Origin: a virus
Taxonomy: Duplodnaviria > Caudoviricetes
DNA length: 31,390 nt
IMG/VR virus record: IMGVR_UViG_3300033489_000043
Coordinates: 1-31,390 of that record
Strand: one strand, 5' to 3'
Shown here: positions 1,275 to 26,988 of the stretch, in pieces
Numbering within the stretch: the first letter of the stretch is position 1
Layout of the letters: each line of letters begins with the position of its first letter
The notes under the pieces: generated by a model
Databases searched by the model: none
What the model saw: only the letters and a program-made list of their open reading frames with translations
Told to the model about the DNA's origin: nothing
Translations under genes and position numbers: made by a program

Positions 1275-3485
1275 ATGGCACAAATTGACCGAATAAACGG
1301 ACTTGTCGGGAGCATTGCAGTCAAAGCTCCTTGCAGGGTAGCGACAACTGCAAATATCACGCTTGCCGGATTTCAGACTATCGATGGAATTACGCTGGCT
1401 GACGGTGACGACAATCTACGTGTTTTTGTCAAAGATCAGACAGACACTACCGAGAATGGTATTTACGATGCCTCGTCAGGAACATGGTCTAGGAGTGCTG
1501 ATTTTGATGGATCACGAGACGTTGTTACAGGGACATTGATAACGGTCAATGCTGGAACAGCTAATGCAAATACAGCATGGCGGGTATCGACCAATGCGAC
1601 TATCGTTGTAGGGGCAACTGCACTGACATTTTCACAGGCAGTATTTTCAGGATCTGGTAGTGTGGAATTTCTACCAGAAGGTGCTGGTGCTGTTGCCACC
1701 AATGTGCAATCAGCACTCAGGCAAATGGCCATGGTCAGCGTTTTTGACTGGTTTACAGCAGCGCAGATTGCGGATATTCAGGCGGGCACATTGTCGGTCG
1801 ATGTGACATTACCAATACAGACCGCATTGGACGAAATGAAAAGCGGACAGTGCTTAGTCTTTCCTTACGGACTATATAAAGTCACTGACTATCTGTCACT
1901 TACTCTGATAGATTTTGAAATAATGATGCTTGGCATTATTGTACCCACCGGAACACTAAATAATGTAGCAGATGGGCTATTCAATTTTGTCTCCTGTGAG
2001 CACTTTCGTATCAGGCCGAATATCAAAAATGCAAGCTACGCATCCACGATTAACCCCATACGCCTGCAATCCTGCACCGAATTTTACATTGGCGGTGGGC
2101 GGATTGACGTAAAAACATCCGGTATTGACGGCTCGGCAGTTATCCAGATTGCCGCGAATACCCAGGGGGGGGTTATCGAGAAAATGTTCCTGCGCGGCGG
2201 GTATGGTGTGTTGGTAAATGATATTGCCGGCGTGTCTGATATTGACATCCTGAATAACCATTTTGTCGGACAAGTTGCCTATGGCAACGCCGGTCCAGGG
2301 GATGCAATTGAAATCAATACTCCTACAAATGGCTCAAGCAATTTCAACATTATCGGCAACCGCTACACCGGCTACGCCTATGCTGTAGCAGGCAGGTCAA
2401 TCATCAACGGCTTCGCGAATGTGGCCAACGTTATCGCATCCCATAATAGCATTACCGATGCTGTTGGAATGATCGGTTTCCATGCTGAAGATGGATCGAC
2501 AAATATTACCTTCGAACACAATATTATTACCAGCGCGCACATAGGTGTGAACATTGCATGTAACACAGCGGATGATCTGAAAACTATCAAGGTGAATGGC
2601 AATAGCATCGACATGCCAATACTTGATGCCGGGGCAACTTACGCCACTGGCGCCGGGATTAAGGTGTCAACAAATCAGGCTTCTGGCGGCGGTGAAATAC
2701 TCGGATTGGATGTGGTTGGAAATACGGTAACGACATCAGCAGTTGCCAACAATGGAATATTTATTTCCGACCATCGAAACGGTGATATTTCAAGTAATAC
2801 AGTGTCTGGATTTCCCGGTATTGGTTTATCTGTGCATGCTAGCAATTCAGGCTCATCTGGTATTCATCATTCCCAGATTCACGACAATATTTCCACAGGT
2901 AACACCACAAATTACAATATTTCAAAAGGCGCTGCTGGCAGCACATACACCGACGAATTGATATTCAGGGATGTTTCGGTAAAAAACAACAAGGCGGACA
3001 ACCTCGCTTGGACACTTGACTATTACAGTGGCGGTGTACAGGCGTATCCAATATATCCAGCTTCAAAAATTAACCTGACCGGAAATGCTGTATCACTCAC
3101 AGATAACACGGCAACAAAAATATTCACAATCACAATTCCTAACTCATTTGTTGTTGGGCAGGTACGGGTAGATTACAACGCATATAACACCGAGACAGGT
3201 AACAGGGTTCAAGAATCTGGAAGCTACGTGTTTACAATCGGTCGGCAATCCGGTAGTGCCGCCAAGATTGCCTCAAGCGCAAAATTTGCAAATTCACAGG
3301 TCGCTCGTATCGGGGCCGGTGCTCCTACCGTAACGATAACATCGACAGCAGTTGCAGGTGCGGTGGGTGCGACAAACACATTCGATATTCAGTTCACCTA
3401 CAACCTCGGAGCCGTATCGGAAAACAATTGTGAATTCGAGGCGACTTATATAGGCAACCTTAATACGGTTACGCTTGCTCCATAA
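1275..3485 (+). CDS. Tailspike/tail fibre with right-handed beta-helix (pectate-lyase-like) domain
   Basis: N-terminal VKAPCRVATTANITL virion-attachment motif, VSVFDW...D-T-PIQTALD linker, many I-x-x-N repeats; SD AAGGA. Confidence 0.85.
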   Translation: MAQIDRINGLVGSIAVKAPCRVATTANITLAGFQTIDGITLADGDDNLRVFVKDQTDTTENGIYDASSGTWSRSADFDGSRDVVTGTLITVNAGTANANTAWRVSTNATIVVGATALTFSQAVFSGSGSVEFLPEGAGAVATNVQSALRQMAMVSVFDWFTAAQIADIQAGTLSVDVTLPIQTALDEMKSGQCLVFPYGLYKVTDYLSLTLIDFEIMMLGIIVPTGTLNNVADGLFNFVSCEHFRIRPNIKNASYASTINPIRLQSCTEFYIGGGRIDVKTSGIDGSAVIQIAANTQGGVIEKMFLRGGYGVLVNDIAGVSDIDILNNHFVGQVAYGNAGPGDAIEINTPTNGSSNFNIIGNRYTGYAYAVAGRSIINGFANVANVIASHNSITDAVGMIGFHAEDGSTNITFEHNIITSAHIGVNIACNTADDLKTIKVNGNSIDMPILDAGATYATGAGIKVSTNQASGGGEILGLDVVGNTVTTSAVANNGIFISDHRNGDISSNTVSGFPGIGLSVHASNSGSSGIHHSQIHDNISTGNTTNYNISKGAAGSTYTDELIFRDVSVKNNKADNLAWTLDYYSGGVQAYPIYPASKINLTGNAVSLTDNTATKIFTITIPNSFVVGQVRVDYNAYNTETGNRVQESGSYVFTIGRQSGSAAKIASSAKFANSQVARIGAGAPTVTITSTAVAGAVGATNTFDIQFTYNLGAVSENNCEFEATYIGNLNTVTLAP

Positions 3486-3511
3486 CAATTTACTAAGCAA
3501 AGGTTATTAGC

Positions 3512-3739
3512 ATGGAAGATCGCCGCGCACATGAGCGACTTACGTCGCTCGAAGAGAAACTTAAAGAGCATCTCGAAAGTCATGCGAGATTTGAGAGTGC
3601 AATAAATGATATTGCTGAAAACACCACCGAACTGGTGCAGCTTGTCAAAGGGGCTAAAGGGCTCAGATCATTTGTGATATGGGTCGCCCCTGTAATAGCT
3701 GCAATTGTCGCGGTGTGGGCGTGGATTAAGGGGCATTAA
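3512..3739 (+). CDS. Small coiled-coil protein with C-terminal TM helix (holin/antiholin-like)
   Basis: 75 aa; C-terminal hydrophobic stretch FVIWVAPVIAAIVAVWAWI; lysis-cassette position. Confidence 0.55.
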   Translation: MEDRRAHERLTSLEEKLKEHLESHARFESAINDIAENTTELVQLVKGAKGLRSFVIWVAPVIAAIVAVWAWIKGH

Positions 3740-5400: not shown

Positions 5401-5491
5401 GCCCAACCCGAAGTGCAAGGCGAGGCGGTTCAGCGCGGTTTAAGTTTCCTGATCGGGCAGTGCGCCGCCCGCCTTAATTTGAACGTTATGC
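5401..5491 (+). repeat. attC-like site 1
   Basis: GCCCAAC-CCGAA-GTGCAAGG...CCTTAAT-TTGAAC-GTTATGC imperfect palindrome. Confidence 0.75.
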
Positions 5492-5946
5492 CTCTCAAAT
5501 CTCCCCCGTACCGCTTCGCCGCCCATCTTTACGGTGCGGTCGTACAGAATTACGTTTGCCGTCGCCGCGAGGTTCATGCAGCTATGCGTAGGCACGTACA
5601 CCACATCTCGGCACCAAGAAAGAACGCGATCCCCGAGCGTCGCATCCTCGGCACCGAAGATGTAGAACGCCCGTTCCGGATGGGTGTAACTCGCCAAACT
5701 GCGAGCGCCAGGAACCAGATCGACGGCCACCGGTACGCAGTCGTATGGAATCACGAGCCGCAGGTCTTCGGTTTCAATTACGGGCGTCATGCGCCACTGC
5801 TTTTTTACGTCGGTCGGTACGTTCCGCATCCTGTGCCCGGACATCGCAACCATCGCGGCGCCGTAGCATCCGGCAGCGCGCATCACGCCGCCCACGTTGG
5901 CAGCGCATTTCGGGTTGTCGAGTCCAATTGCCGCAAAGCCTCTCAT
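5440..5946 (-). CDS. SpoU/TrmH-family (SPOUT) RNA methyltransferase, cassette cargo
   Basis: LDNPKCAANVGGVMR, FGAED and MNLAATANVILYD motifs; SD AGGAG. Confidence 0.85.
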   Translation of the reverse strand: MRGFAAIGLDNPKCAANVGGVMRAAGCYGAAMVAMSGHRMRNVPTDVKKQWRMTPVIETEDLRLVIPYDCVPVAVDLVPGARSLASYTHPERAFYIFGAEDATLGDRVLSWCRDVVYVPTHSCMNLAATANVILYDRTVKMGGEAVRGRFERHNVQIKAGGALPDQET

Positions 5947-6289
5947 GTCGTTTCTCCTGTGTCGCAAGGCATAACCCTGCGGTCAACCGGAGCTTCGCGA
6001 TAAGGCCGCGAAGCCCGGTTACCTTGAACGTTAGGGGTCAACCCACGGACGGCGGCACTCAGCACGTCACGGTGTAGATAGTCGGCAATTCCATCTCCGT
6101 AATACAGGCGCGTTCCGTATGGCTGCTTATCCCAAAACTCAGTTGCCTTTAGCAACCCCTCAAGGCCGTGCGCGCCCTTGAATACTCCAAGCTTCGTCAG
6201 GGTATCGGCGGCGGTGAGCGCAACCCCTACCCAGCGTTCGAGTCAGACAGCCCGACATTTGCTTCTTTATCGCTCAATGGTGTTTCCAT
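5943..6289 (-). pseudogene. Cassette gene frameshifted by 1-nt deletion in attC core
   Basis: GGAG+ATG at 6289 inside site 3 reaches TAG at codon 21; restoring one T (GTTAGGGG) joins it in frame to LLKATEFWDKQ... Confidence 0.6.
5969..6036 (+). repeat. attC-like site 2
   Basis: GCATAAC-CCTGC-GGTCAACC...GGTTACC-TTGAAC-GTTAGGG, canonical R''/L''/L'/R' layout. Confidence 0.9.
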
Positions 6290-6346
6290 GTTAATCGCTC
6301 CGTTTCAAGTTTGGTGGCCGGGCTGCTGCTCAACTCTACGTTGTGC
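6224..6346 (+). repeat. attC-like site 3 (R'' lost one A)
   Basis: CCCCTAC-CCAGC-GTTCGAGT...GCTCAAC-TCTAC-GTTGTGC. Confidence 0.8.
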
Positions 6347-6594
6347 GTCAAAGGACTGTCAGTGAATCCGAACGGCCCAAAGTTTTCTATCAAAACAATA
6401 TGCGTGTCCCAACCAATTCTTTTATCAATACCTATTCCGTACTTCTCTACACGTACCATGCTCGTGGTTACTATAGGGCCAAAGTCTTTCCATTCTTCAT
6501 TTATGTGTGCCGCAACAGCGTCGGCTGTCGCATCAATTTTGGCAACCGTAAGCATGCTTTCGGCAAGACCTCCTCGGTGCGAGCGTATTTTCAT
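6274..6594 (-). CDS. Hypothetical protein, cassette cargo
   Basis: SD GGAG; reads into site 3 (HNVELSSSP) and stops in its loop. Confidence 0.7.
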   Translation of the reverse strand: MKIRSHRGGLAESMLTVAKIDATADAVAAHINEEWKDFGPIVTTSMVRVEKYGIGIDKRIGWDTHIVLIENFGPFGFTDSPLTHNVELSSSPATKLETERLTWKHH

Positions 6595-6619
6595 ATTATT
6601 TTCACTCCGTAGTATTGAC

Positions 6620-6724
6620 GCACAACCCGGCGTTCGAGCGCACGGGCAACGGCGCGGCTTCTTTCACAGTTTCATTCATGGTTTCTCCTCGCGCCGTTAC
6701 CCGGCGCTCAACTATTCGTCAGCA
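6620..6724 (+). repeat. attC-like site 4 (R' GTC variant)
   Basis: GCACAAC-CCGGC-GTTCGAGC...GCTCAAC-TATTC-GTCAGCA. Confidence 0.8.
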
Positions 6725-6992
6725 CCCAGCCCCGCGTGTGCTCTCGTACCACGTAGCGCAGTATCCCGTCAGTTTTCATCCTGTCGGCAAACCTGCTTGC
6801 GGCCAGCGCAGCGCCCTGACGTTTCATGTGGTGGTTCGGCCAAATCGCATCCGCAATCTGGCTGGCCAGTACCGGAGATGCCCCGCGCAACGCCTCCATC
6901 ACGCGCTCACATGCATCCTGGTAGCTCACAACTTTTTCGCCCGTTTTTCTGTTCAATTTTCTCTCCGTTGATCGTGACTCACAACCATACAA
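6708..6992 (-). CDS. Hypothetical protein, possible winged helix; start uncertain
   Basis: ORF fills the space between sites 4 and 5. Confidence 0.5.
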   Translation of the reverse strand: MYGCESRSTERKLNRKTGEKVVSYQDACERVMEALRGASPVLASQIADAIWPNHHMKRQGAALAASRFADRMKTDGILRYVVREHTRGWVLTNS

Positions 6993-7039
6993 TCCAGCGG
7001 AAGCCGCAAAAGCGCGACCCCCTCATTTACACGTTAGAG
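6979..7039 (+). repeat. attC-like site 5
   Basis: TCACAAC-CATAC-AATCCAGC...CCTCATT-TACAC-GTTAGAG. Confidence 0.65.
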
Positions 7040-11100: not shown

Positions 11101-11150
11101 CGATTTACTAACTCATTTTTCGCTAGCGGGCTTTAACAATCTCCTTTACT

Positions 11151-11417
11151 TCATTTGAATCCTGACAACTTGCGTAAACCTAATACCAGAGCCACTTTGC
11201 TCCAGCTCCCGCTCCCGCTCCAGCTCCTGCTCCTGCTCCCGCTCCAGCTCCTGCTCCCGCTCCCGCTCCCGCTCCCGCTCCTGCTCCAGCTCCTGCTCCA
11301 GCTCCCGCTCCTGCTCCTGCTCCTGCTCCAGCTCCCGCTCCTGCTCCAGCTCCTGCTCCTGCTCCAGCTCCCGCTCCTGCTCCTGCTCCATAACTCGCGC
11401 ATAATAACGGCGTTCAT
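11151..11417 (-). CDS. Ser-Arg/Gly/Trp low-complexity protein
   Basis: ATG immediately after upstream TAA; SRSRSGSW repeats. Confidence 0.55.
   Translation of the reverse strand: MNAVIMRELWSRSRSGSWSRSRSWSRSGSWSRSRSRSGSWSRSWSRSGSGSGSGSRSWSGSRSRSWSGSGSWSKVALVLGLRKLSGFK
11199..11390. repeat. Hexamer tandem repeat GCTCC(A/C/T), about 32 units
   Basis: Direct reading. Confidence 0.95.
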
Positions 11418-11774
11418 TTACTTTTGACTCCGTGGCAGGTCTTTGCGCAGCTCGCACACATCTAGTAACGCTCCGCGATTGATATATACCGGCAGGCCAT
11501 CTGGGTACGGCTCACATTCTCTGACTTTCCCTTCGGCCACAAACTGCATAAACCTATCCGTTTCCGGTATCCAAGAGCAATCCACAAGCACCAAATCTGT
11601 TTCGCTGACCGACTCCAGCCTGCCGGTATATATCATCGTCACAGTACGAACGATAACGTTCTTGCCAACCGGATATGCGCTCTGCGTGGCGGAATGTTGC
11701 GGTACAGCGCATAAAGCTTGAATCTCGCGGATTTGCTTCAAGGTAAGTTCTTCGATGTTCATTTCATACTCCAT
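11418..11774 (-). CDS. Phage protein with probable Sm/SH3-like beta-barrel
   Basis: VGKNVIVRTVTMIYTGRL; probable start at 11762 after GGAG. Confidence 0.7.
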   Translation of the reverse strand: MEYEMNIEELTLKQIREIQALCAVPQHSATQSAYPVGKNVIVRTVTMIYTGRLESVSETDLVLVDCSWIPETDRFMQFVAEGKVRECEPYPDGLPVYINRGALLDVCELRKDLPRSQK

Positions 11775-12287: not shown

Positions 12288-12572
12288 ATGGTGTATTACA
12301 CACAACTGGAAAAACTGAAAGCGCGCAAGCCGCACAGATGCACAAGTTGCGGAGAAGCTATCGCTATAGGAGAAGCATACTACAGATGGCGATCCTATGA
12401 ATGTGGAGATGCAGGAACCCACAAAATGCATCCTGAATGTTATGAGATGCACGATGCCGATGCAGTTGGTGGGGAGTGGGAGTACTCGCCATATAGCCAC
12501 GAGCGTCCGGAAGTGACGCACAGCGTGCAAGGTGAGGCGTTGCCAATCTCGAAAGGACAAACGAAGCTATGA
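12288..12572 (+). CDS. Zinc-binding hypothetical protein
   Basis: ARKPHRCTSCG...HPEC; stops within attC loop. Confidence 0.7.
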   Translation: MVYYTQLEKLKARKPHRCTSCGEAIAIGEAYYRWRSYECGDAGTHKMHPECYEMHDADAVGGEWEYSPYSHERPEVTHSVQGEALPISKGQTKL

Positions 12573-12640
12573 ACGACCAGACACCAATGCCAGCGAAAGA
12601 ATTCACTTCAGGGCAGTCCCGCTTGACCGTAGGGTTAGCC
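12518..12640 (-). repeat. attC-like site 6 (R' GCT variant)
   Basis: Minus: GGCTAAC-CCTAC-GGTCAAGC...CCTCACC-TTGCAC-GCTGTGC. Confidence 0.7.
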
Positions 12641-12901
12641 GCTGACTTGCGGACAAGATCGGGGCAGGAAGCATCTGTGATTGAGCAAATACGTGAGTAT
12701 GGCGGATTCTCGATATTCTGGGCAACCGAAACACAGCGGAGAGCGTGCGCCATAGAGCGACTGCAAAAGCGCGGAGAGATTAGCAGAATTGGCGGAAGCT
12801 ATCCATTTTGTAAATATGAACTGGCGCACAACGTTCAAATTGAGGCGCCGCCCGCTTCTGGGCGGTCGCTCTCGAATGCAGGGTTGTGCGTCAAAACGTA
12901 A
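12569..12901 (+). CDS. Hypothetical cassette protein starting inside site 6 and reading through site 7
   Basis: AAAGGA + ATGA overlap in loop; C-terminus HNVQIEAPP...SNAGLCVKT. Confidence 0.65.
   Translation: MNDQTPMPAKEFTSGQSRLTVGLAADLRTRSGQEASVIEQIREYGGFSIFWATETQRRACAIERLQKRGEISRIGGSYPFCKYELAHNVQIEAPPASGRSLSNAGLCVKT
12826..12889 (-). repeat. attC-like site 7
   Basis: Minus: GCACAAC-CCTGC-ATTCGAGA...CCTCAAT-TTGAAC-GTTGTGC. Confidence 0.9.
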
Positions 12902-12915
12902 CTACGGAGATAAAA

Positions 12916-13200
12916 ATGGAAATCAACAAAATAGCAGCACGGCAATATGACTGGGTGGAGCGCATGGGCTGGCATAACAAAACCGTGCTTGAGGCGCTGG
13001 CGCTGATCGCAAGCGAAGTAGGCGAAGCGGTGAACGAGTGCCGAGGTGAAGCGCCATCCGAGGATTTTCCAACGGAGCTTGCGGACATCATCTTGCGGAC
13101 AGTTGATCTTGCCCACTGGCAGGGCATCGACATTGCGGACGTGATCGCTACAAAGATGGCGAGCAACGAGCGGAACGGAACGCGGGGCAGGCGCATTTGA
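12916..13200 (+). CDS. MazG-like NTP pyrophosphohydrolase, cassette cargo
   Basis: LIASEVGEAVNE and ELADIILR (ExxE...ExxD) motifs; SD GGAG. Confidence 0.8.
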   Translation: MEINKIAARQYDWVERMGWHNKTVLEALALIASEVGEAVNECRGEAPSEDFPTELADIILRTVDLAHWQGIDIADVIATKMASNERNGTRGRRI

Positions 13201-13201
13201 C

Positions 13202-13264
13202 GCACAACGTAGAGTTAACCGGCTCCGCGCTTTTGCGGAGTCCGGGTTCAACGCCGGGTTGGGC
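13202..13264 (-). repeat. attC-like site 8
   Basis: Minus: GCCCAAC-CCGGC-GTTGAACC...GGTTAAC-TCTAC-GTTGTGC. Confidence 0.88.
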
Positions 13265-13286
13265 GGCATGTGGAGCCAGCGGTGGG

Positions 13287-13730
13287 CTAATCGTGCTTGA
13301 CGACGCGACCGACTATGAAAACAGAGACAAGACCAATGACCGTCGTACCGCCAATAACTCCTGCAACAGCAGGAGAACCCATAGCCAGCGCCAACATTGA
13401 GGCTCCAAGTGCGGTGAGGCCGATTACGAAACCGAAAAACTGGCCTCTTTTTACTTCGGCCTCCATTGCGCGCAAGGCTGCAAATTCGATTTCTTGTTGG
13501 TGCTTCGTATCTGACTCGGCCATTATCAAGATGCGTTCAGCGGCACCCTTGACGAGATGTTCATACCCCTCAAGAACTGAAGGGGGTGGCATGGGGCCTG
13601 AGAAAGTGGATTGCTGGAACTGTGCAACAGACTTGCTATTGCCATTTGCGCCGGAAGCAGTAACCGCGCCGTTGGCGGTGCTAACGGCGTTCTTAGGCTG
13701 CTTTGGTTTTTGTGATTGGGGTCGAGCCAT
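13287..13730 (-). CDS. DUF2335-like membrane protein
   Basis: FSGPMPPPSVLEGYE...GAAERILIMAE...RGQ followed by two TM helices. Confidence 0.8.
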   Translation of the reverse strand: MARPQSQKPKQPKNAVSTANGAVTASGANGNSKSVAQFQQSTFSGPMPPPSVLEGYEHLVKGAAERILIMAESDTKHQQEIEFAALRAMEAEVKRGQFFGFVIGLTALGASMLALAMGSPAVAGVIGGTTVIGLVSVFIVGRVVKHD

Positions 13731-13902
13731 TATCAGCGAACGAACCGCAAGCGCGGCTAACAGACTCGCCGACATGGGTGAAATGACTAGCCATGCGTTC
13801 AGCACCGCTACGGCGCGGTGCCAATTGACGCAGATTGCGCGCAGGAGCCAAGTCCATCACGCTCCCTGCGCCACGAAGAAAATTCTTTGTTTTCGTATTC
13901 AT
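13693..13902 (-). CDS. Small hypothetical partner of DUF2335 gene
   Basis: FLRGAGSVMDLAP; overlaps start of DUF2335 gene. Confidence 0.6.
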   Translation of the reverse strand: MNTKTKNFLRGAGSVMDLAPARNLRQLAPRRSGAERMASHFTHVGESVSRACGSFADNGSTPITKTKAA

Positions 13903-14802
13903 GGCCGAATGATAGCCGCAAGCGGCTTGACAATCAAGTCGTTAAGCGTAACGGGAACGTCACATTCCCGGCACGTGAGGTTCTTGACGCCCAACGTATA
14001 GTAGCCGGCAAAAACGCCGGATATGCTGGTAATACCGGACAAACACGGCGTTTACCAATACGCATGACCATTGCTAGTTTGATTGCAAATCAAACATTGT
14101 GCATCGAAGCCTGACTGTGCGCACAGCGCCCGGATGGAAATAGCATAGAAAACAGTGGTCATCCGTGTTGGTAAGGGCAATGTCTGGTAGGTACTAGCTA
14201 CCAGACACCCAACAGCGTGAAGTGTGCTACCGGAGACCGTTAGTAAGCTAGACGAAAGCGCGAAAGGTCGCAATGCACACTAGCTCGGTATAATAGAGCT
14301 GCCAACACTAATTTTGCTGGTGAATGCGCATGCTGAGATAATCCCAGCAAAATGTCGATTGAGCTTGCGACAAAAAAGGCGGCGAGCCTTAAATGAATAA
14401 GTTTCCGTGTTTCTTGCGCGATGGTAACGAAATGACCATGCCGGATATCGTAACCGGCAAATTTTCCGCTTGCTATTGGTTTGCGGAAGCTTTAAAGTTA
14501 TATTTGTTCGCGGGTTAACCGCCGCGACAACCAATGTCGAGGTGCCAATGTATCAAATCAGTTTCTTCAGTGATGGGCAGTCGGCTTTTAGCCAATGCCT
14601 CGTATCGGCTAGACTCCTGTTGGGTTGGTTGCCCAGCGCCCATCACAGAGGATATTGATATGACGATAAATACCCCAGAATACCTCCGCTGCTACGCAGT
14701 TGCGAAATCCATCCCATCACGCAAGAATAAGCGCCCGGCGATACTGTTTTGGTTTAAGTGCGCAAAAAAGATGTTGAAGGCGTCCAAAGATAGGGGTGAT
14801 AA

Positions 14803-20178: not shown

Positions 20179-20415
20179 ATGGAGATTGAAATGCAACAGG
20201 GGAAATTGGCTGGAATTATTGACCGTACCGAAGCCCCGCCTGGATATTTTGCGGTGTTGAAAGCGGAGGTTGTAACCCAATCGCTTGGCAACATATGCAG
20301 GGCGTGTGACTGGCGACCTGATTGCGATGGGGTGACTTACAGGTGTATGCCGTATGAGCTGGCGAACGGATTAAAGAGACGCGACGAGTGCAGCGTGGTG
20401 TTCAAGCGATTATGA
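20179..20415 (+). CDS. Cys-rich hypothetical protein
   Basis: CRACDW...VVFKR; precedes site 9. Confidence 0.6.
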   Translation: MEIEMQQGKLAGIIDRTEAPPGYFAVLKAEVVTQSLGNICRACDWRPDCDGVTYRCMPYELANGLKRRDECSVVFKRL

Positions 20416-20431
20416 AATTGAAATGGTTTTT

Positions 20432-20518
20432 TATTGGCGCTGAGTTGAGGGGCGAGGAATGAGCGAAGCGAATGACGAGTCCAGCCGCGCAGCGGCGACC
20501 TCGAACGCCGTGTTAGAA
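20432..20518 (-). repeat. attC-like site 9 (R' degenerate)
   Basis: Minus: TTCTAAC-ACGGC-GTTCGAGG...CCTCAAC-TCAGC-GCCAATA. Confidence 0.65.
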
Positions 20519-20529
20519 CGGCGGGCGTT

Positions 20530-20811
20530 ATGGAACGAAGAATAGTTTGCGCGGCAATGCGGAACAGTGCGGGTGATATTGTGACCGGAGCGCGTCATTA
20601 TGACGGAATCATGCGACAGCACATAGAACGGCTGCGCGAGTCGCACGGGCATGATGTGTGGTCGAAGAGCGACATTGAGCAAGGTTTCATTGACCAGCGT
20701 GGAGAGTTTCTGACACGCGAAGAGGCGCACAAGGTTGCAGCCGAAGCTGGGCAGATCATCCGGCGCTGCGGAGGCGATGATGTGAGGCTGTTCAGCGAGA
20801 ACCTGTACTGA
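20530..20811 (+). CDS. Phage hypothetical protein, cassette cargo
   Basis: IVCAA...GARH...QGFIDQRGEFLTREEA...LFSENLY. Confidence 0.75.
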   Translation: MERRIVCAAMRNSAGDIVTGARHYDGIMRQHIERLRESHGHDVWSKSDIEQGFIDQRGEFLTREEAHKVAAEAGQIIRRCGGDDVRLFSENLY

Positions 20812-20814
20812 GGT

Positions 20815-20878
20815 GTCGAACGTAGAGTTGAGGGGGCGCGCCCGCTTTTGGCGCGTCCCTTGCAACGATGGGTTAGCC
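20815..20878 (-). repeat. attC-like site 10
   Basis: Minus: GGCTAAC-CCATC-GTTGCAAG...CCTCAAC-TCTAC-GTTCGAC. Confidence 0.85.
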
Positions 20879-20925
20879 CCCGCTTTTGCTACAGCGCGAA
20901 AAGTTTTGTGTTAGAATAAAGCCAT

Positions 20926-20975
20926 CTGAGAGTAGGCTAGTCTGGTCAAGTCACCCGGTTTGGAACCGGGATAAT
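20926..20975 (+). pseudogene. 5' portion of disrupted tRNA-Pro(TGG)
   Basis: Acceptor CTGAGAG, D arm, anticodon arm CCCGG-TTTGGAA-CCGGG; T arm missing; extended -10 TGtTAGAAT upstream. Confidence 0.85.
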
Positions 20976-20977
20976 TT

Positions 20978-21055
20978 CAGTGTGTAATGTCAATCTGGTA
21001 GACGGCCTGCTTTGGAAGCAGGAGGCTGAAGGTTCAAATCCTTCCACACTGACCA
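20978..21055 (+). tRNA. tRNA-Pro(TGG)
   Basis: CAGTGTG/CACACTG acceptor, CCTGC-TTTGGAA-GCAGG, GAAGG-TTCAAAT-CCTTC, encoded CCA. Confidence 0.92.
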
Positions 21056-21100
21056 ATTTATGTGTTATGATGTTTGGAACTTAACTACATAGTTCCAATT

Positions 21101-21445
21101 ATGACAAGCGACGAGAAGCGCAAATACCACAGGGATTATCACGCAAAAAGAAGTCCAGATAAAAAGCAACACAAGATGAAATTACAGGCCGACCGCGCCC
21201 TTAAAAACATCTTGGCGTTACGGGATTATAAATCCGAGCATGGATGCTCTGTATGCGGAGAAAAAGACCCGATAGTTTTAGAGTTTGACCATCTTGATAT
21301 GGATGCTAAAAGTTTTAGTGTTGGGAATTCCGCAAGATTGGGAATGTCATTAGAAAACCTAATGAAAGAAGTGTCGAAGTGTGAAGTTTTATGCGCGAAC
21401 TGCCATAAAAAGAAAACAGCAAAACAAATGAATTGGCGGGTATAA
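21101..21445 (+). CDS. HNH homing endonuclease
   Basis: CSVCG...LEFDH...KCEVLCANCH; AT-rich. Confidence 0.88.
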   Translation: MTSDEKRKYHRDYHAKRSPDKKQHKMKLQADRALKNILALRDYKSEHGCSVCGEKDPIVLEFDHLDMDAKSFSVGNSARLGMSLENLMKEVSKCEVLCANCHKKKTAKQMNWRV

Positions 21446-21464
21446 AATCCTACCTCTCAGACCA
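21445..21464 (+). pseudogene. 3' remnant of disrupted tRNA-Pro
   Basis: AAATCCTAC-CTCTCAG-ACCA; CTCTCAG pairs 7/7 with CTGAGAG at 20926. Confidence 0.85.
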
Positions 21465-21503
21465 TCAAATAACCTGTACGTACTTTAAGACGAAAGGTGT
21501 CAA

Positions 21504-21692
21504 ATGAAAATCGCAACTGAAAAACCATACCGTATTTTTGCCGAAGTTTTGGAGCAAGGCGCGCTCGATCAATTCGAGAGCGCGATGCAACAGCCGTTTG
21601 CAGTGCGTGGCGCACTGATGCCTGACTCTCACTCTGGATACACTCTACCAATCGGGGCGGTGATCGCCACGGATGGCGTGATACTGCATTAA
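21504..21692 (+). pseudogene. rtcB: Orphan N-terminal fragment of RtcB
   Basis: KPYRIFAE...GALMPDSHSGYTLPIGAVIA aligns with N-terminus of 22228 gene. Confidence 0.9.
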
Positions 21693-21696
21693 CCTG

Positions 21697-21725
21697 TTGA
21701 GTTATGATAACGGGTGCGGTATAAT
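21697..21725 (+). promoter_or_regulatory. Sigma70-like promoter at start of HNH insertion
   Basis: TTGAGT-17-TATAAT. Confidence 0.6.
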
Positions 21726-21754
21726 TACGCATTGTTTTTATCGGTAACTTTCAA

Positions 21755-22234
21755 ATGGCGTTATCAACCAAGGAAATAAAAGCCCGTTATTTCAAGAAAA
21801 AGTACGACGAAGCACCAGAAATAGAATGCCTTTGCGGGTGTGGCGAAAAGATTAAATCTATTGATGCGTATGGCAGGCCGAAAGGTTTTGTTAGTGGGCA
21901 TAATGGGCGAAAATACGCGGACAAGTATGGGCATAAAAAAGAATGGGTTAAAAGAAACCGTGACTGGGTAAATTCGCGTAAACAGCGATTATCCAGAGAG
22001 CGTAAATTGTTTTTAATGACGCTGAAAAATTCAGTCTGTAAAAATTGCGGACTTGAGTACGACGGTAAAAATGGATCGGCATTCCATTTCCACCACACAA
22101 ACCCAGAAAATAAAGAGGTTGAGATCGGAAGCAATTTAAACAATATCTCGCTTGATGCCCTGATTGGCGAGGTTGAAAAATGCGAATTGCTTTGCTCTAA
22201 CTGTCACTCAATTAAACATCAAGGAGAATGGTAA
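21755..22234 (+). CDS. HNH homing endonuclease
   Basis: CLCGCG...SGHN, CKNCG...FHFHH...KCELLCSNCH. Confidence 0.88.
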   Translation: MALSTKEIKARYFKKKYDEAPEIECLCGCGEKIKSIDAYGRPKGFVSGHNGRKYADKYGHKKEWVKRNRDWVNSRKQRLSRERKLFLMTLKNSVCKNCGLEYDGKNGSAFHFHHTNPENKEVEIGSNLNNISLDALIGEVEKCELLCSNCHSIKHQGEW

Positions 22235-23397
22235 TGTACAAAGGAAAATATGTTGAATCGCTTGGTATGACTGACTTGCAACATCTTGATTCTCTCGGAA
22301 AGCCTTACAAAATATTTGCTGAGATTATTGAGGAAGCCGCGATACTTCAATTCATTGACTACATGGATCAGGATTGGGTCGTTAAAGGCGCTTTGATGCC
22401 GGACGTGCATTCCGGCTATTCGCTGCCGATTGGTGCTGTAATCGCTTGCGATGGGGTTATAAGCCCACAAGCGGTTGGCTACGACATTGGTTGCGGAATG
22501 TGCGCGTTGCCAACGACCTTTGAAGCGGGCGAAGTGAAGGAAAAGGCAAAGGCAATTTTCGACGGCATTTACAAGGCCGTCCCGGTCGGGTTTTCGCACA
22601 ACCAGAGAAACACCGAATGGGATTACAGCGTCCTTCCGCGCACTGCCAAGATGCAGGAGATTTTCGACAAGAACGGGCTGCGCCAGATCGGCAGCTTGGG
22701 CGGTGGTAATCACTTCGCCGAAGTGGGAGCGGACGAAACTGGGAAAGTTTGGGTTGTGATCCATTCCGGCTCACGCGGCATCGGACACGCGGCGGCATCG
22801 CACTACATGCGATTGGCGAGCGGTGACGGGAAAGCGCGGGAAGGGCATTTTGGTTTTGACGTGAACGAAACGAACGGGGTTGACTACATCGCCGACTTAG
22901 GGTTTTGCCTTGAATTGGCGCTTGAGAATCGGCGCGAAATCATGCGCCGTATTGAGGCTGTGCTTTCGGCTAACTGCACCGGGTTTGGCGATTGGGATGC
23001 GCTGATAAACCGCAACCATAACCACGCCGAACTGAAAGACGGGCTATGGATTCACCGCAAGGGCGCTACACACGCCGAATCCGGGATGATGGGCGTGATA
23101 CCGGGCAACATGCGGGACGGCAGCTTTATCGTGCGCGGCAAAGGCAACCCATATGCGTTGTGGTCAAGCTCACACGGCGCAGGCCGTGTGCTTGGGCGCA
23201 AGGAAGCGCAGCGCACTTTGAACATGGAGCAATTCACCGAAGCCATGACCGGAGTGGTTGCGCTGGTGACAGCCGAAACACTCGACGAATCGCCATTTGC
23301 TTATAAGTCAATTTATGATATAATCGAATCTCAAGTAAGGGATGGCATGATCGAAAAGGTTTGCCACATAAGGCCGATTATCAACATAAAAGGATAG
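22228..23397 (+). CDS. rtcB: RtcB RNA-splicing/repair ligase
   Basis: MPDVH, GYDIGCG, GSLGGGNHF, HSGSRG, HNH, HRKGAT, IPGNM, SHGAGR, DESPFAYK, NIKG. Confidence 0.96.
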   Translation: MVMYKGKYVESLGMTDLQHLDSLGKPYKIFAEIIEEAAILQFIDYMDQDWVVKGALMPDVHSGYSLPIGAVIACDGVISPQAVGYDIGCGMCALPTTFEAGEVKEKAKAIFDGIYKAVPVGFSHNQRNTEWDYSVLPRTAKMQEIFDKNGLRQIGSLGGGNHFAEVGADETGKVWVVIHSGSRGIGHAAASHYMRLASGDGKAREGHFGFDVNETNGVDYIADLGFCLELALENRREIMRRIEAVLSANCTGFGDWDALINRNHNHAELKDGLWIHRKGATHAESGMMGVIPGNMRDGSFIVRGKGNPYALWSSSHGAGRVLGRKEAQRTLNMEQFTEAMTGVVALVTAETLDESPFAYKSIYDIIESQVRDGMIEKVCHIRPIINIKG

Positions 23398-23399
23398 CA

Positions 23400-23957
23400 A
23401 TGGAAACGAGCTTTGAGTATGCCGCTGGCTTTTTTGATGGGGAGGGATGCGTAGGAATTTATCCCGGATCATATAAAGGAAAGCTTGCCAGATATACCCT
23501 TAGAACTCAGTTGGCGCAAAACAAAAACTCATTAACTGATGAGCTTTTTAAGTGGTTTTCCGATACGTTTGGCGGCGGTATATCAACGCAAATTTCGCTA
23601 TCTGGAAACGAAAAATTGAACTGGCAGCTTAATGGAGACAATGCAAATAATTTTTTGCGAATAATTTCCCCGCATCTTGTCTTAAAAAAACCGCAAGCAG
23701 ATATTGCAATATCTTGGCAAACGAAAAGACCAAAACAAATCCACTTGCCAAGCGGTCAATTCAGATTTGAGACTGCGCCAGATTTAGTTTTTGATGCTAA
23801 GGTTTGCGATTTAATGAAAAGGTGCAAGCGAGAAATCCTTGAGGATGTAATAGCAGATGATGAAATGCTGCTGACGTATCAAAGCGTGATGGCGCAGCAA
23901 ACCGACATGGTTGAGGTTGTTGCGCACGTCAAGCCACTGCTGAACATCAAGGGATGA
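23400..23957 (+). CDS. LAGLIDADG endonuclease fused to displaced RtcB C-terminus
   Basis: YAAGFFDGEG, ISPHLVLKKPQA; tail YQSVMAQQTDMVEVVAHVKPLLNIKG. Confidence 0.88.
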   Translation: METSFEYAAGFFDGEGCVGIYPGSYKGKLARYTLRTQLAQNKNSLTDELFKWFSDTFGGGISTQISLSGNEKLNWQLNGDNANNFLRIISPHLVLKKPQADIAISWQTKRPKQIHLPSGQFRFETAPDLVFDAKVCDLMKRCKREILEDVIADDEMLLTYQSVMAQQTDMVEVVAHVKPLLNIKG

Positions 23958-23963
23958 ACGCGG

Positions 23964-24027
23964 GGCTAACGTTCAAATTGAGGCGCGGCGCGCTGTTGCG
24001 CCGTCGCTCTCGAATGCAGGGTTAGGC
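23964..24027 (-). repeat. attC-like site 11
   Basis: Minus: GCCTAAC-CCTGC-ATTCGAGA...CCTCAAT-TTGAAC-GTTAGCC; arms near-identical to site 7. Confidence 0.9.
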
Positions 24028-24048
24028 TTTTGAAAAGGAGAATGAAAA

Positions 24049-24336
24049 ATGAGCGACAACGACAAAGTGATTTGCCCGAACTGCGTGCATGAATTCGTGG
24101 CCGTGTCCGTGAACATACAGGCCAAGTTGACGATGAAAAATCAGAAGGTAGTTACTTTAACATCGTTCGACTTACCACCGAGGCTAATAACTTCAATAAA
24201 CGCATTTGACGATGCAATGGTAAAAGCGATAGATACTGTTATCGAATCTGGTGTGCATCGTGGAATGATAGTAGGGATGCTTCACGCATACGCACATGAG
24301 CAGACTAGAAGGATGGTTGAAGATGGGTACGCCTAA
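24049..24336 (+). CDS. Hypothetical protein, cassette cargo
   Basis: SD AAGGAG; stop is the TAA of GCCTAAC. Confidence 0.7.
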   Translation: MSDNDKVICPNCVHEFVAVSVNIQAKLTMKNQKVVTLTSFDLPPRLITSINAFDDAMVKAIDTVIESGVHRGMIVGMLHAYAHEQTRRMVEDGYA

Positions 24337-24417
24337 CGTAGAGTTAACCGGCTCCGGGCAGCCTTATCGCCCGGAGTCCAGCGACCGAAGGGAGCGAGGT
24401 TGAGCGCCATGTTATGC
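24331..24417 (-). repeat. attC-like site 12
   Basis: Minus: GCATAAC-ATGGC-GCTCAACC...GGTTAAC-TCTAC-GTTAGGC. Confidence 0.88.
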
Positions 24418-24722
24418 CACGCAGCCACGGGAGAGAGCGAATGCCCTGCTACATAGAGCCGATGAGGGACGGCGGCACGATGTTTCTGTGCGGCGCCTTT
24501 GGGCCGCATTGCGCGGATTGCGGAGCCGTGGGAGACAACCTGTGCGATTACCCGGTAGGTGATGGCAATACATGCGACCGCAATATTTGCGACCGCCACG
24601 CCCATGAGGTGGCACCGAACATGCACTACTGCGACCAGCACTACGCGGAGTGGCGAGCGTTCCGCGATGCAGGCGGGGTGAAATCAGAGCTTGAGAACGT
24701 GGTGCCGTTTCATGGGGCATAA
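24414..24722 (+). CDS. Cys/His-rich zinc-binding hypothetical protein, cassette cargo
   Basis: CADC, LCDYP, TCDRNIC, YCDQH; stop is the TAA of GCATAAC. Confidence 0.7.
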   Translation: MPRSHGRERMPCYIEPMRDGGTMFLCGAFGPHCADCGAVGDNLCDYPVGDGNTCDRNICDRHAHEVAPNMHYCDQHYAEWRAFRDAGGVKSELENVVPFHGA

Positions 24723-24782
24723 CGGACAGGTTCAGGGGCTGGCGGGCAGTTTCGCCAGTCCCGCTGGAACCGAGAGTTAGAG
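24717..24782 (-). repeat. attC-like site 13
   Basis: Minus: CTCTAAC-TCTCG-GTTCCAGC...CCTGAAC-CTGTCC-GTTATGC. Confidence 0.88.
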
Positions 24783-24962
24783 GGGTGATTTGATGTGGAA
24801 CAGTTCCCACAAACCGGGGTGCATTTTGGATTTTCCGGCTTCCCAATCCTGCCATGTGCGCAGTGCTGAATGCACCAAGCTGGCCGCCGTTTTCTGCGTG
24901 AGGCCGGCAGCTTTACGGGCTGCGCAAACCTCACTGTTTGACGGGATTAATCCGGGTTGCAT
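24777..24962 (-). CDS. XRE-family HTH protein
   Basis: ARKAAGLTQKTAA...RTWQDWEAG; stop in CTCTAAC. Confidence 0.8.
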   Translation of the reverse strand: MQPGLIPSNSEVCAARKAAGLTQKTAASLVHSALRTWQDWEAGKSKMHPGLWELFHIKSPL

Positions 24963-25195
24963 GGTTCGAGTTTCAGCCCAGCCCGATAGCCGCGCCCAAG
25001 TGCCGCGCGCATCGGGTCGGTGGATGATTCCGCAGACAGCCACATATCATGCTCCGCCTGCGTTCCGAATTGGTCGCCATGGTGGGCGCGGCGCAGGCCG
25101 CGCATGTGCCCGGCCCACCACTCGGATTCGACCGGATCGTCTGTCAGCCGGCGTAGGGTGTCAGCCCTACGCATCAGGGTTGCGAAATTGCTCAT
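24947..25195 (-). CDS. Hypothetical protein
   Basis: ATGA-coupled within inverted operon. Confidence 0.6.
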   Translation of the reverse strand: MSNFATLMRRADTLRRLTDDPVESEWWAGHMRGLRRAHHGDQFGTQAEHDMWLSAESSTDPMRAALGRGYRAGLKLEPCNPD

Positions 25196-25416
25196 GTTTG
25201 GTCGAAAGCAACGGCCTCACCAGCATCGTACCCGTCGATGTAGTCAAGCACGTCTGCCGGGAGTCGGCGAAAATGAATGTCGAGGCTATCCAGGACACAG
25301 ACCAGAGGCGTGCAAATAGCCAGGTTAGACGGGTAACGCTCATTGGGGAGCATTTCGGCTTTCATACCGGCCAGGTAGCCGGCAAAACGAGCGGGGGACA
25401 TTGTGGACATTTTCAA
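25192..25416 (-). CDS. Hypothetical protein
   Basis: SD GAGGAG; upstream promoter TTGCGT-16-TATAAT near 25475-25502. Confidence 0.55.
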   Translation of the reverse strand: MKMSTMSPARFAGYLAGMKAEMLPNERYPSNLAICTPLVCVLDSLDIHFRRLPADVLDYIDGYDAGEAVAFDQT

Positions 25417-25555
25417 CTCCTCACCAGGCTACCGGCTGGCGTCGGCGGGAAGCGTTGCGCATCCCATGAACTGAATTATACGCGGATTTCGCGTAAACGC
25501 AAGAACATTTTTGAATTATTTTTCGGATGGCGTGGCGTGGCGTGACGGCCAAGCC

Positions 25556-25611
25556 CTCTAACGCAAAAGTCACCGGCGCCGAAGGCGTCCGCGTGGACTG
25601 ACGGGTTATGC
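25556..25611 (-). repeat. attC-like site 14
   Basis: Minus: GCATAAC-CCGTC-AGTCCACG...GGTGACT-TTTGC-GTTAGAG. Confidence 0.85.
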
Positions 25612-25706: not shown

Positions 25707-26198
25707 ATGAAAAGCGCAGAATGCACGATCAATGTAGGGATTCCGGCAGATGTTCTTGAGCGGCTCGATGTGATGGCAAGCACGCAATTCACCACCCGAT
25801 CAGAAATAGCTAGATCGTTTTTAATCGAGGCTCTATACCGACAGGATATAGATTCTGAATTTGTTTTTTTGACCTTGGTTACATGGTCGAAAGCGGTAAA
25901 AAACCGCGACAGCAATAAATGCGCGAAGTGCGGAAGCGTTGAAAAATTACACGCGCACCACAAGCGTCCAGTGGCGCGTGGCGGAAAAAATACATTGGAG
26001 AACGGGATAACGCTTTGCCGGGAATGCCACACAGCAGCGCACATCTTGGAATTCAGAGGGGCAGGGCAAGAGCGCATTGCTGTTGGCTTGAAGCTCCCCC
26101 GCTGGCTTGTGGAATGGCTACGCGCCCAGCCCGAGTCTTTAACCGGATTGATCGAAGAGGCTTTGATCGAAGAAAATAAGTTAAAAGCACCAATTTAA
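25707..26198 (+). CDS. RHH + HNH endonuclease + small DNA-binding domain fusion
   Basis: VGIPADVLERLD; CAKCG...HAHH...GGKNTLENGITLCRECH; KLPRWLVEWL tail. Confidence 0.8.
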   Translation: MKSAECTINVGIPADVLERLDVMASTQFTTRSEIARSFLIEALYRQDIDSEFVFLTLVTWSKAVKNRDSNKCAKCGSVEKLHAHHKRPVARGGKNTLENGITLCRECHTAAHILEFRGAGQERIAVGLKLPRWLVEWLRAQPESLTGLIEEALIEENKLKAPI

Positions 26199-26510: not shown

Positions 26511-26764
26511 AACTCAGCGATAAAAAAATATACGAGCAGGAGTGCAAAAAAATGGATGCGATGATGGGTGATCCGGTTTTTGTTTGCGCTACAGGAGCCA
26601 TTCCAGAATTACGCGCAGCCACACCCCGTCAGGGCGGGGAGCTTTTCGCTAGGTTTTATGCGCACGATGAAGAAAGTTTTTTGAAAGCGACAAAATATGT
26701 TGGGCTTTCCACTCGTGAAATAGCTGTTGCCCGCGAACAGGCAGAATCTCGCGGGGTAATGTGA
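26507..26764 (+). CDS. Hypothetical protein
   Basis: SD GGAG; coupled on both sides. Confidence 0.6.
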   Translation: MKLSDKKIYEQECKKMDAMMGDPVFVCATGAIPELRAATPRQGGELFARFYAHDEESFLKATKYVGLSTREIAVAREQAESRGVM

Positions 26765-26988
26765 GTGACTCTAATCCAAGAGGCGCGGGGCGCAAGCCCG
26801 CACCGCCTGAACTTAAAAAGATTCCGGTTGGAATAAAACTCCCGCGCTGGCTTGTGGAGTGGATGCGTGCTCGGCCTGAGAGTCAGGCCGTGCTGATAGA
26901 GGAAGCGTTAAAAAAGCGGCACAAATTGAAACCGCCCGAAGGGGCATATGCACCACATATAAGCCGAAAAAATTGGAACCGAAAATAA
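26761..26988 (+). CDS. Small RHH-like DNA-binding protein
   Basis: RGAGRKP...IKLPRWLVEWM...LIEEAL. Confidence 0.7.
   Translation: MSDSNPRGAGRKPAPPELKKIPVGIKLPRWLVEWMRARPESQAVLIEEALKKRHKLKPPEGAYAPHISRKNWNRK

Follow-up and report, generated by a model that had tools for sequence, protein, structure and literature searches.

The stretch of DNA analysed here (the window) is the whole of virus record IMGVR_UViG_3300033489_000043, a metagenomic contig of 31,390 bp that is about 60% complete. Its genes for a YqaJ recombinase, DnaB, NinG and terminase subunits (Pfam, PHROG) form the set of a temperate-type tailed phage. Between two ends that resemble integron attC sites, the phage carries tRNA-Pro, the RNA-repair gene rtcB and three endonuclease genes. 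A preliminary description of this DNA had proposed these contents, and all of them are in place: a complete tRNA-Pro (20978-21055), a full rtcB (22234-23397) and three endonuclease genes, of which two are of the HNH type and one is of the LAGLIDADG type. The unit is very probably an attC-bounded, inverted phage cassette in which tRNA-Pro and rtcB have been hit by three intron-free nucleases, each lying beside a foreign replacement. Because every nuclease stands next to a divergent replacement of the piece that was displaced, the module likely stays working without splicing.

Related loci, designated here by L numbers, provide the alleles with which the unit can be compared. In L002 and L084, an uninterrupted tRNA-Pro is followed by rtcB. 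In L001, rtcB alone lies between the same two cassette ends as in the window, and L082 holds a diverged copy of the whole triple-nuclease unit between those ends. The expectation that removing the insertions would leave a compact tRNA-rtcB unit is thus borne out by real alleles, L002 and L084, but these lack attC sites and lie beside terminase-type sequence.

The first element resides in the tRNA gene (all features are on the + strand unless stated otherwise). The cassette leader (20881..20925) begins with a degraded version of the L001 ribosome-binding leader, which is followed by an extended -10-like box at 20909-20917. A promoter had been listed within the unit; a consensus scan lists no sigma-70 site at the cassette start, but the -10-like box is visible and is also kept in L082, and thus may act as a promoter. 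Next comes the 5' piece of an original tRNA-Pro(TGG), comprising the acceptor strand, D arm and anticodon arm (20926..20971, by alignment), which agrees with the intact tRNA of L002 at 44/46 bases and with L082 at 46/46. The gene is then interrupted in its variable loop by a 474-bp element that contains a different, complete tRNA-Pro and the endonuclease gene HNH1. The replacement tRNA-Pro(TGG), which includes CCA (20978..21055; ARAGORN, Rfam), folds as a cloverleaf and has a compensatory acceptor-stem change in L082. A promoter-like site predicted to serve HNH1 (consensus scan) is followed, at 21072-21080, by a 9-base copy of the original tRNA anticodon loop (20958-20966) that carries one change in L082 and is possibly an operator; site and copy together span 21043..21080. 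HNH1 (21101..21445) encodes a zinc-binding HNH endonuclease of 114 amino acids, as judged by Pfam HNH, PHROG 2255 and conserved Cys/His columns. The 3' remnant of the original tRNA-Pro (about 21436..21464, by alignment to L002) has a T arm whose sequence is changed at its overlap with the stop codon of HNH1, and its T loop is altered in both the window and L082 copies. The preliminary description was therefore right about a complete tRNA-Pro gene but incomplete in counting one, as a split tRNA (20926-20971 and about 21436-21464) and a different complete one are both present. A contig from sequencing run X4 joins position 20971 to 21445 through an intact T arm; being only 82% alike, it represents an allele of another phage. 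Integrase-driven insertion into a tRNA gene was considered for this element and rejected, since the 474-bp insert consists only of a different complete tRNA and an HNH gene, without a recombinase.

The second element separates rtcB from its original start. A stranded start of 62 codons (21504..21692, Pfam RtcB), which matches the uninterrupted L084 gene at 165/180 bases, stops just before the codons for GYDIGCG. On the decayed remains of those codons lies a sigma-70-like promoter with 10/12 consensus bases (21697..21725; consensus scan, alignment to L002), and a similar site is present in L082. HNH2 (21755..22234), an HNH endonuclease of 159 amino acids, is recognized by PHROG 2255 and 3106 and by relatives at the same rtcB site; it gave no Pfam match. 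Between the window and L082, HNH2 and the new rtcB start that follows it share 55% and 65% amino acid identity, respectively, versus 95% for the RtcB body, and this divergence suggests separate homing events at one site.

The third element replaces the other end of the gene, leaving a hybrid rtcB of 387 amino acids (22234..23397; Pfam, PHROG, PDB) that is composed of a foreign start to about 22490, a native body and a foreign end from about 23296. The new end begins after the codons for ESPFAY and is followed by a single-motif LAGLIDADG gene (23400..23957; Pfam), I-CreI-like by profile, whose open reading frame (ORF) is joined, in phase, to the original rtcB end left stranded at about 23883-23957. 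The LAGLIDADG gene and the stranded end are unfused in L082, and the same fusion to a duplicated end is found in the unrelated L328. The full rtcB gene is accompanied by a stranded 62-codon start and a stranded end, which the preliminary description had not mentioned. The hybrid protein has a full-length RtcB domain in which the DxGC, NH, H, HN, SHG and AYK motifs, which have catalytic roles in RtcB, are all present.

The boundaries of these elements are apparent in several ways. Identity to the empty alleles falls at the element boundaries, and G+C content is 0.39-0.42 in the inserts versus 0.53-0.57 in the native parts; across the three parts of hybrid rtcB, taken with their nuclease genes, it is 0.42, 0.57 and 0.39. 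Amino acid identity to L084 is 95% for the old start versus 62% for the new start, and 87% for the old end versus 61% for the new end. The stranded native ends are thus nearer to intact relatives than are the inserted ends, as for mobile ORFs of the mitochondrial type. When the window is compared with L082, the ratio of nonsynonymous to synonymous substitution (dN/dS) is 0.05 for HNH1, 0.08 for LAGLIDADG, 0.04 for the RtcB body and 0.06 for the stranded start. Individual RtcB rows of L082, L001 and L002 that were read out of frame are excluded from these figures. The earlier proposal of selection agrees with this purifying selection on rtcB (dN/dS 0.04). The related proposal that both functions survive every insertion holds at the level of sequence, but survival comes through replacement of the displaced pieces, which the preliminary description did not state.

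Stranded pieces that look conserved (46/46 bases for the tRNA piece; dN/dS of 0.06 for the start) might also be expected if the inserts were self-splicing introns, inteins or trans-spliced pieces that restore the original tRNA and rtcB as RNA or protein, RtcB perhaps sealing the split tRNA. Bacillus phages in which HNH2 relatives lie within introns at the corresponding site, and L078 with its intein-like insert there, fit this idea as well. However, an Rfam search detects no intron in 20400-24500 at E values up to 5, nor in L082, whereas the same search detects the group I introns of the Bacillus control loci. Stop codons are found in every insert, and splicing would have no need of the complete second copy of the displaced piece that each one carries; the T loop of the tRNA remnant is altered in both copies. 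We therefore regard splicing as very improbable. Group I introns and inteins as such were rejected on the same grounds: an Rfam core is absent although the positive controls worked, and stop codons and duplicated flanks are present.

Because the contig is metagenomic and samples of this kind contain many related alleles, the duplications could alternatively be ordinary recombination mosaics or misassemblies of related phages. This explanation is scarcely credible and largely refuted. Independent contigs match without differences: positions 20300-23997 are covered in this way by contigs of run X1, which is possibly the source sample. Moreover, L082 has all three of these junctions and run X5 has part of them, and the layouts are found again, in unrelated sequence, in L012 and L328.

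The three nucleases were likely inserted through homing. Their domains have intact catalytic motifs and lie outside any intron or intein, as is expected of free-standing homing endonucleases. Nuclease-free cognate alleles exist (L002, L084 and the X4 joint), and the target in the donor is diverged at both rtcB motifs. Homing is supported by the linkage of each nuclease family to its particular target gene in phages that are otherwise unrelated. A tRNA of one of many isotypes lies within 1.5 kb in 53/71 HNH1 relatives, and the split-tRNA layout is repeated in L012 with unrelated sequence. Relatives of HNH2 lie ahead of rtcB in L015, after a stranded start in L242, and inside group I introns just before the DIGCG codons of rtcB in Bacillus phages Goe27 and CM1. 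Of the four top matches among cultured phages, one (MW202545) shows no rtcB. The best 3 of 68 LAGLIDADG relatives, all on viral contigs, follow rtcB. A LAGLIDADG gene also lies after an intact rtcB in three cultured actinophages, namely Gordonia phage OneUp, whose genome is likely that of L329, Microbacterium phage Pumpernickel, and Skinny; a second rtcB end was detected in none of them. The HNH1 and LAGLIDADG relatives were found with alignment queries, single-protein viral scans having given almost none.

In the mechanism that we envisage, each nuclease would cut a conserved site of the uninterrupted allele, namely the variable loop or T arm of the tRNA, the GYDIGCG codons or the ESPFAYK codons. 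Repair would then copy in the nuclease gene together with the divergent, cut-resistant tRNA or gene end. The stranded pieces may be homology arms that are refreshed from live alleles, and a dN/dS of 0.06 for the stranded start is what would be expected if such arms were renewed at each homing event. Alternatively, homing may have ended and the nucleases become domesticated, making the block a stable island whose nucleases cleave host DNA or competing phages, or an addiction module. Neither of the two diverged copies has lost any of the three genes, which are intact and subject to purifying selection, and islands of homing endonuclease genes (HEGs) that bracket useful cargo have been described (PMC10448857). 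We nevertheless consider this outcome rather improbable, as the families each follow their own target gene across unrelated phages and, between the window and L082, a joint exchange of HNH2 and its gene start has taken place. It also overlaps with homing, of which the exclusion of competitor markers is a part.

Other interrupted rtcB genes were encountered among the relatives. In L242 (2310-3065), rtcB lacks its middle part; what is left is a stranded start and a C-terminal tail with an HNH2 relative between them, and both breakpoints match those of the window. L078 (2846-5011) has an intein-like in-frame insert in RtcB at GYDIG|C, the motif occupied by HNH2 elements. A second interrupted site, GGG|NHF, holds a nuclease-like ORF in L069 (2486-4690) and in L414 (Goe27; 2166-3600); the insert is within a group I intron in Goe27, and L069 is without an Rfam intron at an E value of 0.05.

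The entire unit is enclosed by attC-like sites. The attC that the cassette is predicted to own lies at 20815..20878 on the - strand (canonical top strand, opposite to the genes), where it was identified by a hairpin scan and a covariance model hit; its predicted crossover falls between 20820 and 20821. The next attC (23964..24027, - strand) belongs to the neighbouring cassette except for the shared core, and other attC bodies occupy this position in L001 and L082. The cassette ends form an exact inverted repeat of 9 bp, made of the inverse core and an extension (left arm 20872..20880, right arm 23962-23970), which provides the complementarity between core and inverse core expected of an attC cassette. 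Complementary ends of 11 bp had been reported, but the left 11-mer quoted is absent from the window, where the left end has five C and the exact repeat is 9 bp. Exact inverted repeats of 7-13 bp are found at 8/11 of the neighbouring cassette-end pairs of this phage that were tested, so the 9-bp repeat is the ordinary core/inverse-core signature, which marks a cassette and is not special to this one. The sites have attC architecture, with R''/R' boxes containing AAC/GTT, L boxes with the extra base on the R''-L'' arm, and a foldable stem.

An integron gene usually reads towards its own attC. This is true of the control locus L246, whereas the genes of the window, and those of other phage-type cassettes, read away from theirs. 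A canonical attC top-strand pattern gave 10 matches in the window, of which seven coincide with hairpins and oppose local transcription and three are weak; controls yielded 0.45 matches per strand. The covariance model, built from 11 sites including 20815-20878, recognizes 13 window sites (nine trained and four untrained), all of which oppose phage transcription, and gives one further weak match in the opposite direction (E 0.34). The same pattern and model match class 1 integron attCs on the strand of their genes (51.7 bits), which indicates that the window sites are genuinely attC-like and inverted. The underlying plasmid BLAST match is weak by itself (E 2) and was used only for getting an orientation control. 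The pattern scan had been made orientation-aware and supplemented with the model, an earlier hairpin scan that assumed attCs on the gene strand having missed the L001 sites. With the sites inverted, the cassette should run from 20821 to 23969 and own its upstream hairpin, a predicted excisable unit of 3149 bp (20821..23969, not assigned to a strand) that rests on attC orientation and on the ends kept in L001 and L082.

Comparison of these three genomes also bears on whether the block is one cassette, as had been claimed. The last 20 bases up to the core are common to the window, L001 and L082. Their upstream attC is related, with 53/69 aligned bases of the window attC and leader shared with L001 and 45/59 with L082, and the downstream attC is different in each. 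The same ends thus surround rtcB alone or the triple-nuclease unit, and the same cargo is found with its attC among different neighbours, in agreement with the claim.

It could still be argued that the hairpins are relics or phage recombination hot spots and that the enclosed tRNA-rtcB block is no longer mobilized by an integrase. No integrase was found in the incomplete contig, a block of several genes and 3.1 kb exceeds what is usual in these arrays, attC is absent from most of the related rtcB loci, and some attC sites of the window are degenerate. Conversely, after the 20 shared bases the three genomes have different attC bodies, and the change falls precisely on the predicted crossover. 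IntI1 recombined other phage attC sites (PMC9892861), and similar sites (16, as arrays) are found in a Rhodocyclaceae genome, a hint that hosts could supply the integrase. On balance the relic explanation is unlikely, while retaining appreciable weight, and we favour a mobile cassette that would be moved by an integron integrase of the host or of a co-infecting element.

Several features of the attC arrays deserve description in their own right. The phage has three separate arrays, at 5401-7039 (genes on the - strand), 12518-14050 and 20444-25611 (genes on the + strand), each antisense to local transcription. Among the genes that they carry are those for a SpoU-type methylase and a MazG-like pyrophosphatase, besides small ones of unknown nature. 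One cassette, for a membrane protein (PHROG 3996; 13287-13805, - strand), is the only one seen to read towards its attC, as in bacterial integrons, and was possibly picked up from a host array. The attCs at 12826-12889 and 23964-24027, although in different arrays, are nearly identical except for the central stem, and close copies are common in unrelated metagenome contigs. An rtcB cassette in a Thiomicrorhabdus array (L239, 1627-3095) is antisense to its attC and has a 12-bp exact end repeat; the neighbouring gene reads the opposite way, and this may be a phage-type cassette inside a bacterial integron.

The association of tRNA, rtcB and attC was surveyed more broadly. We fetched 240 rtcB loci and searched 197 for attC, the rest being left out mostly as duplicates. 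An attC-flanked rtcB occurs in only 3/197 loci (L001, L082 and L239), and a tRNA lies within 1.2 kb at 34/202 rtcB loci, a mixed outcome for the expectation that related loci would have attC boundaries and tRNA-rtcB linkage. In L159, tRNA-Pro, tRNA-Leu and rtcB lie beside an array and not inside it. On the RtcB tree, tRNA-linkage labels are scattered, with 13 changes for 15 labels versus 14.6 in shuffles, so the linkage does not define one clade. Exact viral pattern searches with the original tRNA matched only the contig of L002, and with the cassette end matched nothing; 401 genomes from the order to which the Rhodocyclaceae genome belongs gave six short matches (47-80 bases), none spanning the unit.

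These alleles also speak to the order of assembly. The stranded start and tRNA are closest to the non-cassette locus L084 (165/180 versus 125/180), whereas the old rtcB end is, among the empty alleles, closest to L001 (66/72). A decayed L001-like leader, an L084-like tRNA and start, and an L001-like end together suggest that the tRNA entered an existing rtcB cassette secondarily. Judged from these sequences, secondary entry is likelier than the alternative, in which the tRNA was lost in L001.

Some results weigh against the reading that we favour. A search for endonuclease-free alleles between the same ends yielded the rtcB-only L001, but no nuclease-free cassette with both tRNA and rtcB was found in the 197 loci, in two viral pattern scans or in the 401 genomes. 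The full split-tRNA pattern occurs in only 3/74 HNH1 loci, which are the positive controls (the window, L082 and the unrelated L012). A first remnant detector, which had no positive control, found no remnants, and a second returned the three positive controls together with nine other orphan candidates, a few of them plausible. Moreover, 65/68 LAGLIDADG relatives are without rtcB nearby. Among small tRNA sets, Pro(TGG) is present in 16/30 at rtcB versus 10/29 at control loci, which include HNH1 relatives and may therefore be biased; with a p value of 0.19, a Pro-specific repair role is not shown. Finally, the inverse core of L082 has one mismatch, and no tyrosine recombinase (PF00589) was found in the roughly 60%-complete contig.

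Most parts of this system have published precedents. In fungal mitochondria, endonuclease ORFs that replace gene ends are known (PMC3630166, PMC7487136), and mobile endonuclease ORFs that carry a foreign C-terminus have been described for Allomyces atp6 and for Glomus atp6, atp9, cox2 and nad3 (PMC3630166). Like the LAGLIDADG element, these ORFs are intron-free, supply a divergent replacement end and strand a native end that is closest to relatives. In contrast, the present elements reside in a phage, element 2 replaces a gene start and has its own promoter-like site, element 1 replaces a whole tRNA, and all three lie within 3 kb. Free-standing homing endonucleases that undergo intronless homing are represented by SegB, SegF and SegG of T4 (PMC13096335, PMC12724721). 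As in the T4 Seg genes and HEG islands (PMC10448857), the nucleases of the window are outside introns, are linked to tRNA or conserved genes, accompany a presumably resistant donor target and gather in several around a useful locus. However, in the published cases compared here the nuclease genes insert at a site unconnected with the target gene, whereas here insertion is inside the target and the displaced piece is left behind.

Clusters of attC sites without an integrase (CALINs) are likewise known in phages (Qi et al. 2023, PMC9892861). The window resembles them in its attC-bounded cassettes and in the integrase not being seen in the phage, but differs in that its genes are antisense to attC. 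The main text of that paper makes no mention of tRNA, RtcB or homing; its supplements could list such cargo. RtcB and spare tRNAs have been proposed to act against host tRNA cleavage, and HNH genes and rtcB adjoin tRNA arrays (PMC7824862, PMC8421152); a phage tRNA rescues T6 from Septu (PMC13096335). Unlike those arrays, the unit described here is a minimal one-tRNA module, in a small temperate-type phage, that is packaged between attC sites. Full-text literature searches, from which subscription journals are largely missing, turned up neither a cassette that carries a tRNA gene nor a case of replacement homing in the rtcB of a phage, and did not show inverted arrays as a general feature of phages. 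The unit is well supported as a composite of known kinds; attC clusters, gene-end replacement and intronless homing have already been published.

Two further observations were made elsewhere in the window. An ORF at 11146-11457 (- strand) consists of tandem Glu/Gln/Arg/Leu repeats with 6-base units and adjoins a small conserved-looking gene. A fourth HNH gene (25707-26198) terminates in the motif GxKLPRWLVEWxRAxPES, which recurs in a small ORF 600 bp downstream (26761-26988), a possible further nuclease-element duplication.

The phage may benefit from the unit by having a spare tRNA and the means to religate nicked RNA in the face of host tRNA nucleases. A bolder proposal, which we offer tentatively, is that phages keep a mirror-image pool of integron cassettes able to hold an excisable counter-defence kit of spare tRNA and RNA ligase, which is driven through phage populations by a widespread, splicing-free class of ‘replacement homing’ elements that exchange gene starts, gene ends and entire tRNAs, cooperate as a stack and possibly brought the tRNA in. 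A single 3-kb unit shows three routes by which homing endonucleases can enter conserved genes without splicing, and the matched empty, partly related and fully invaded alleles make the target sites directly testable. The occurrence of one nuclease family in both intron-borne and free-standing form at the same rtcB codon bears on how introns and nucleases meet. Hybrid genes such as this rtcB would, moreover, be a source of error in annotation and in phylogenies. Provided that the cassette is excisable, integron-type recombination moves tRNA and RNA-repair genes among phages and into bacterial arrays, and such transfer would constitute a counter-defence route against tRNA-cleaving immunity.

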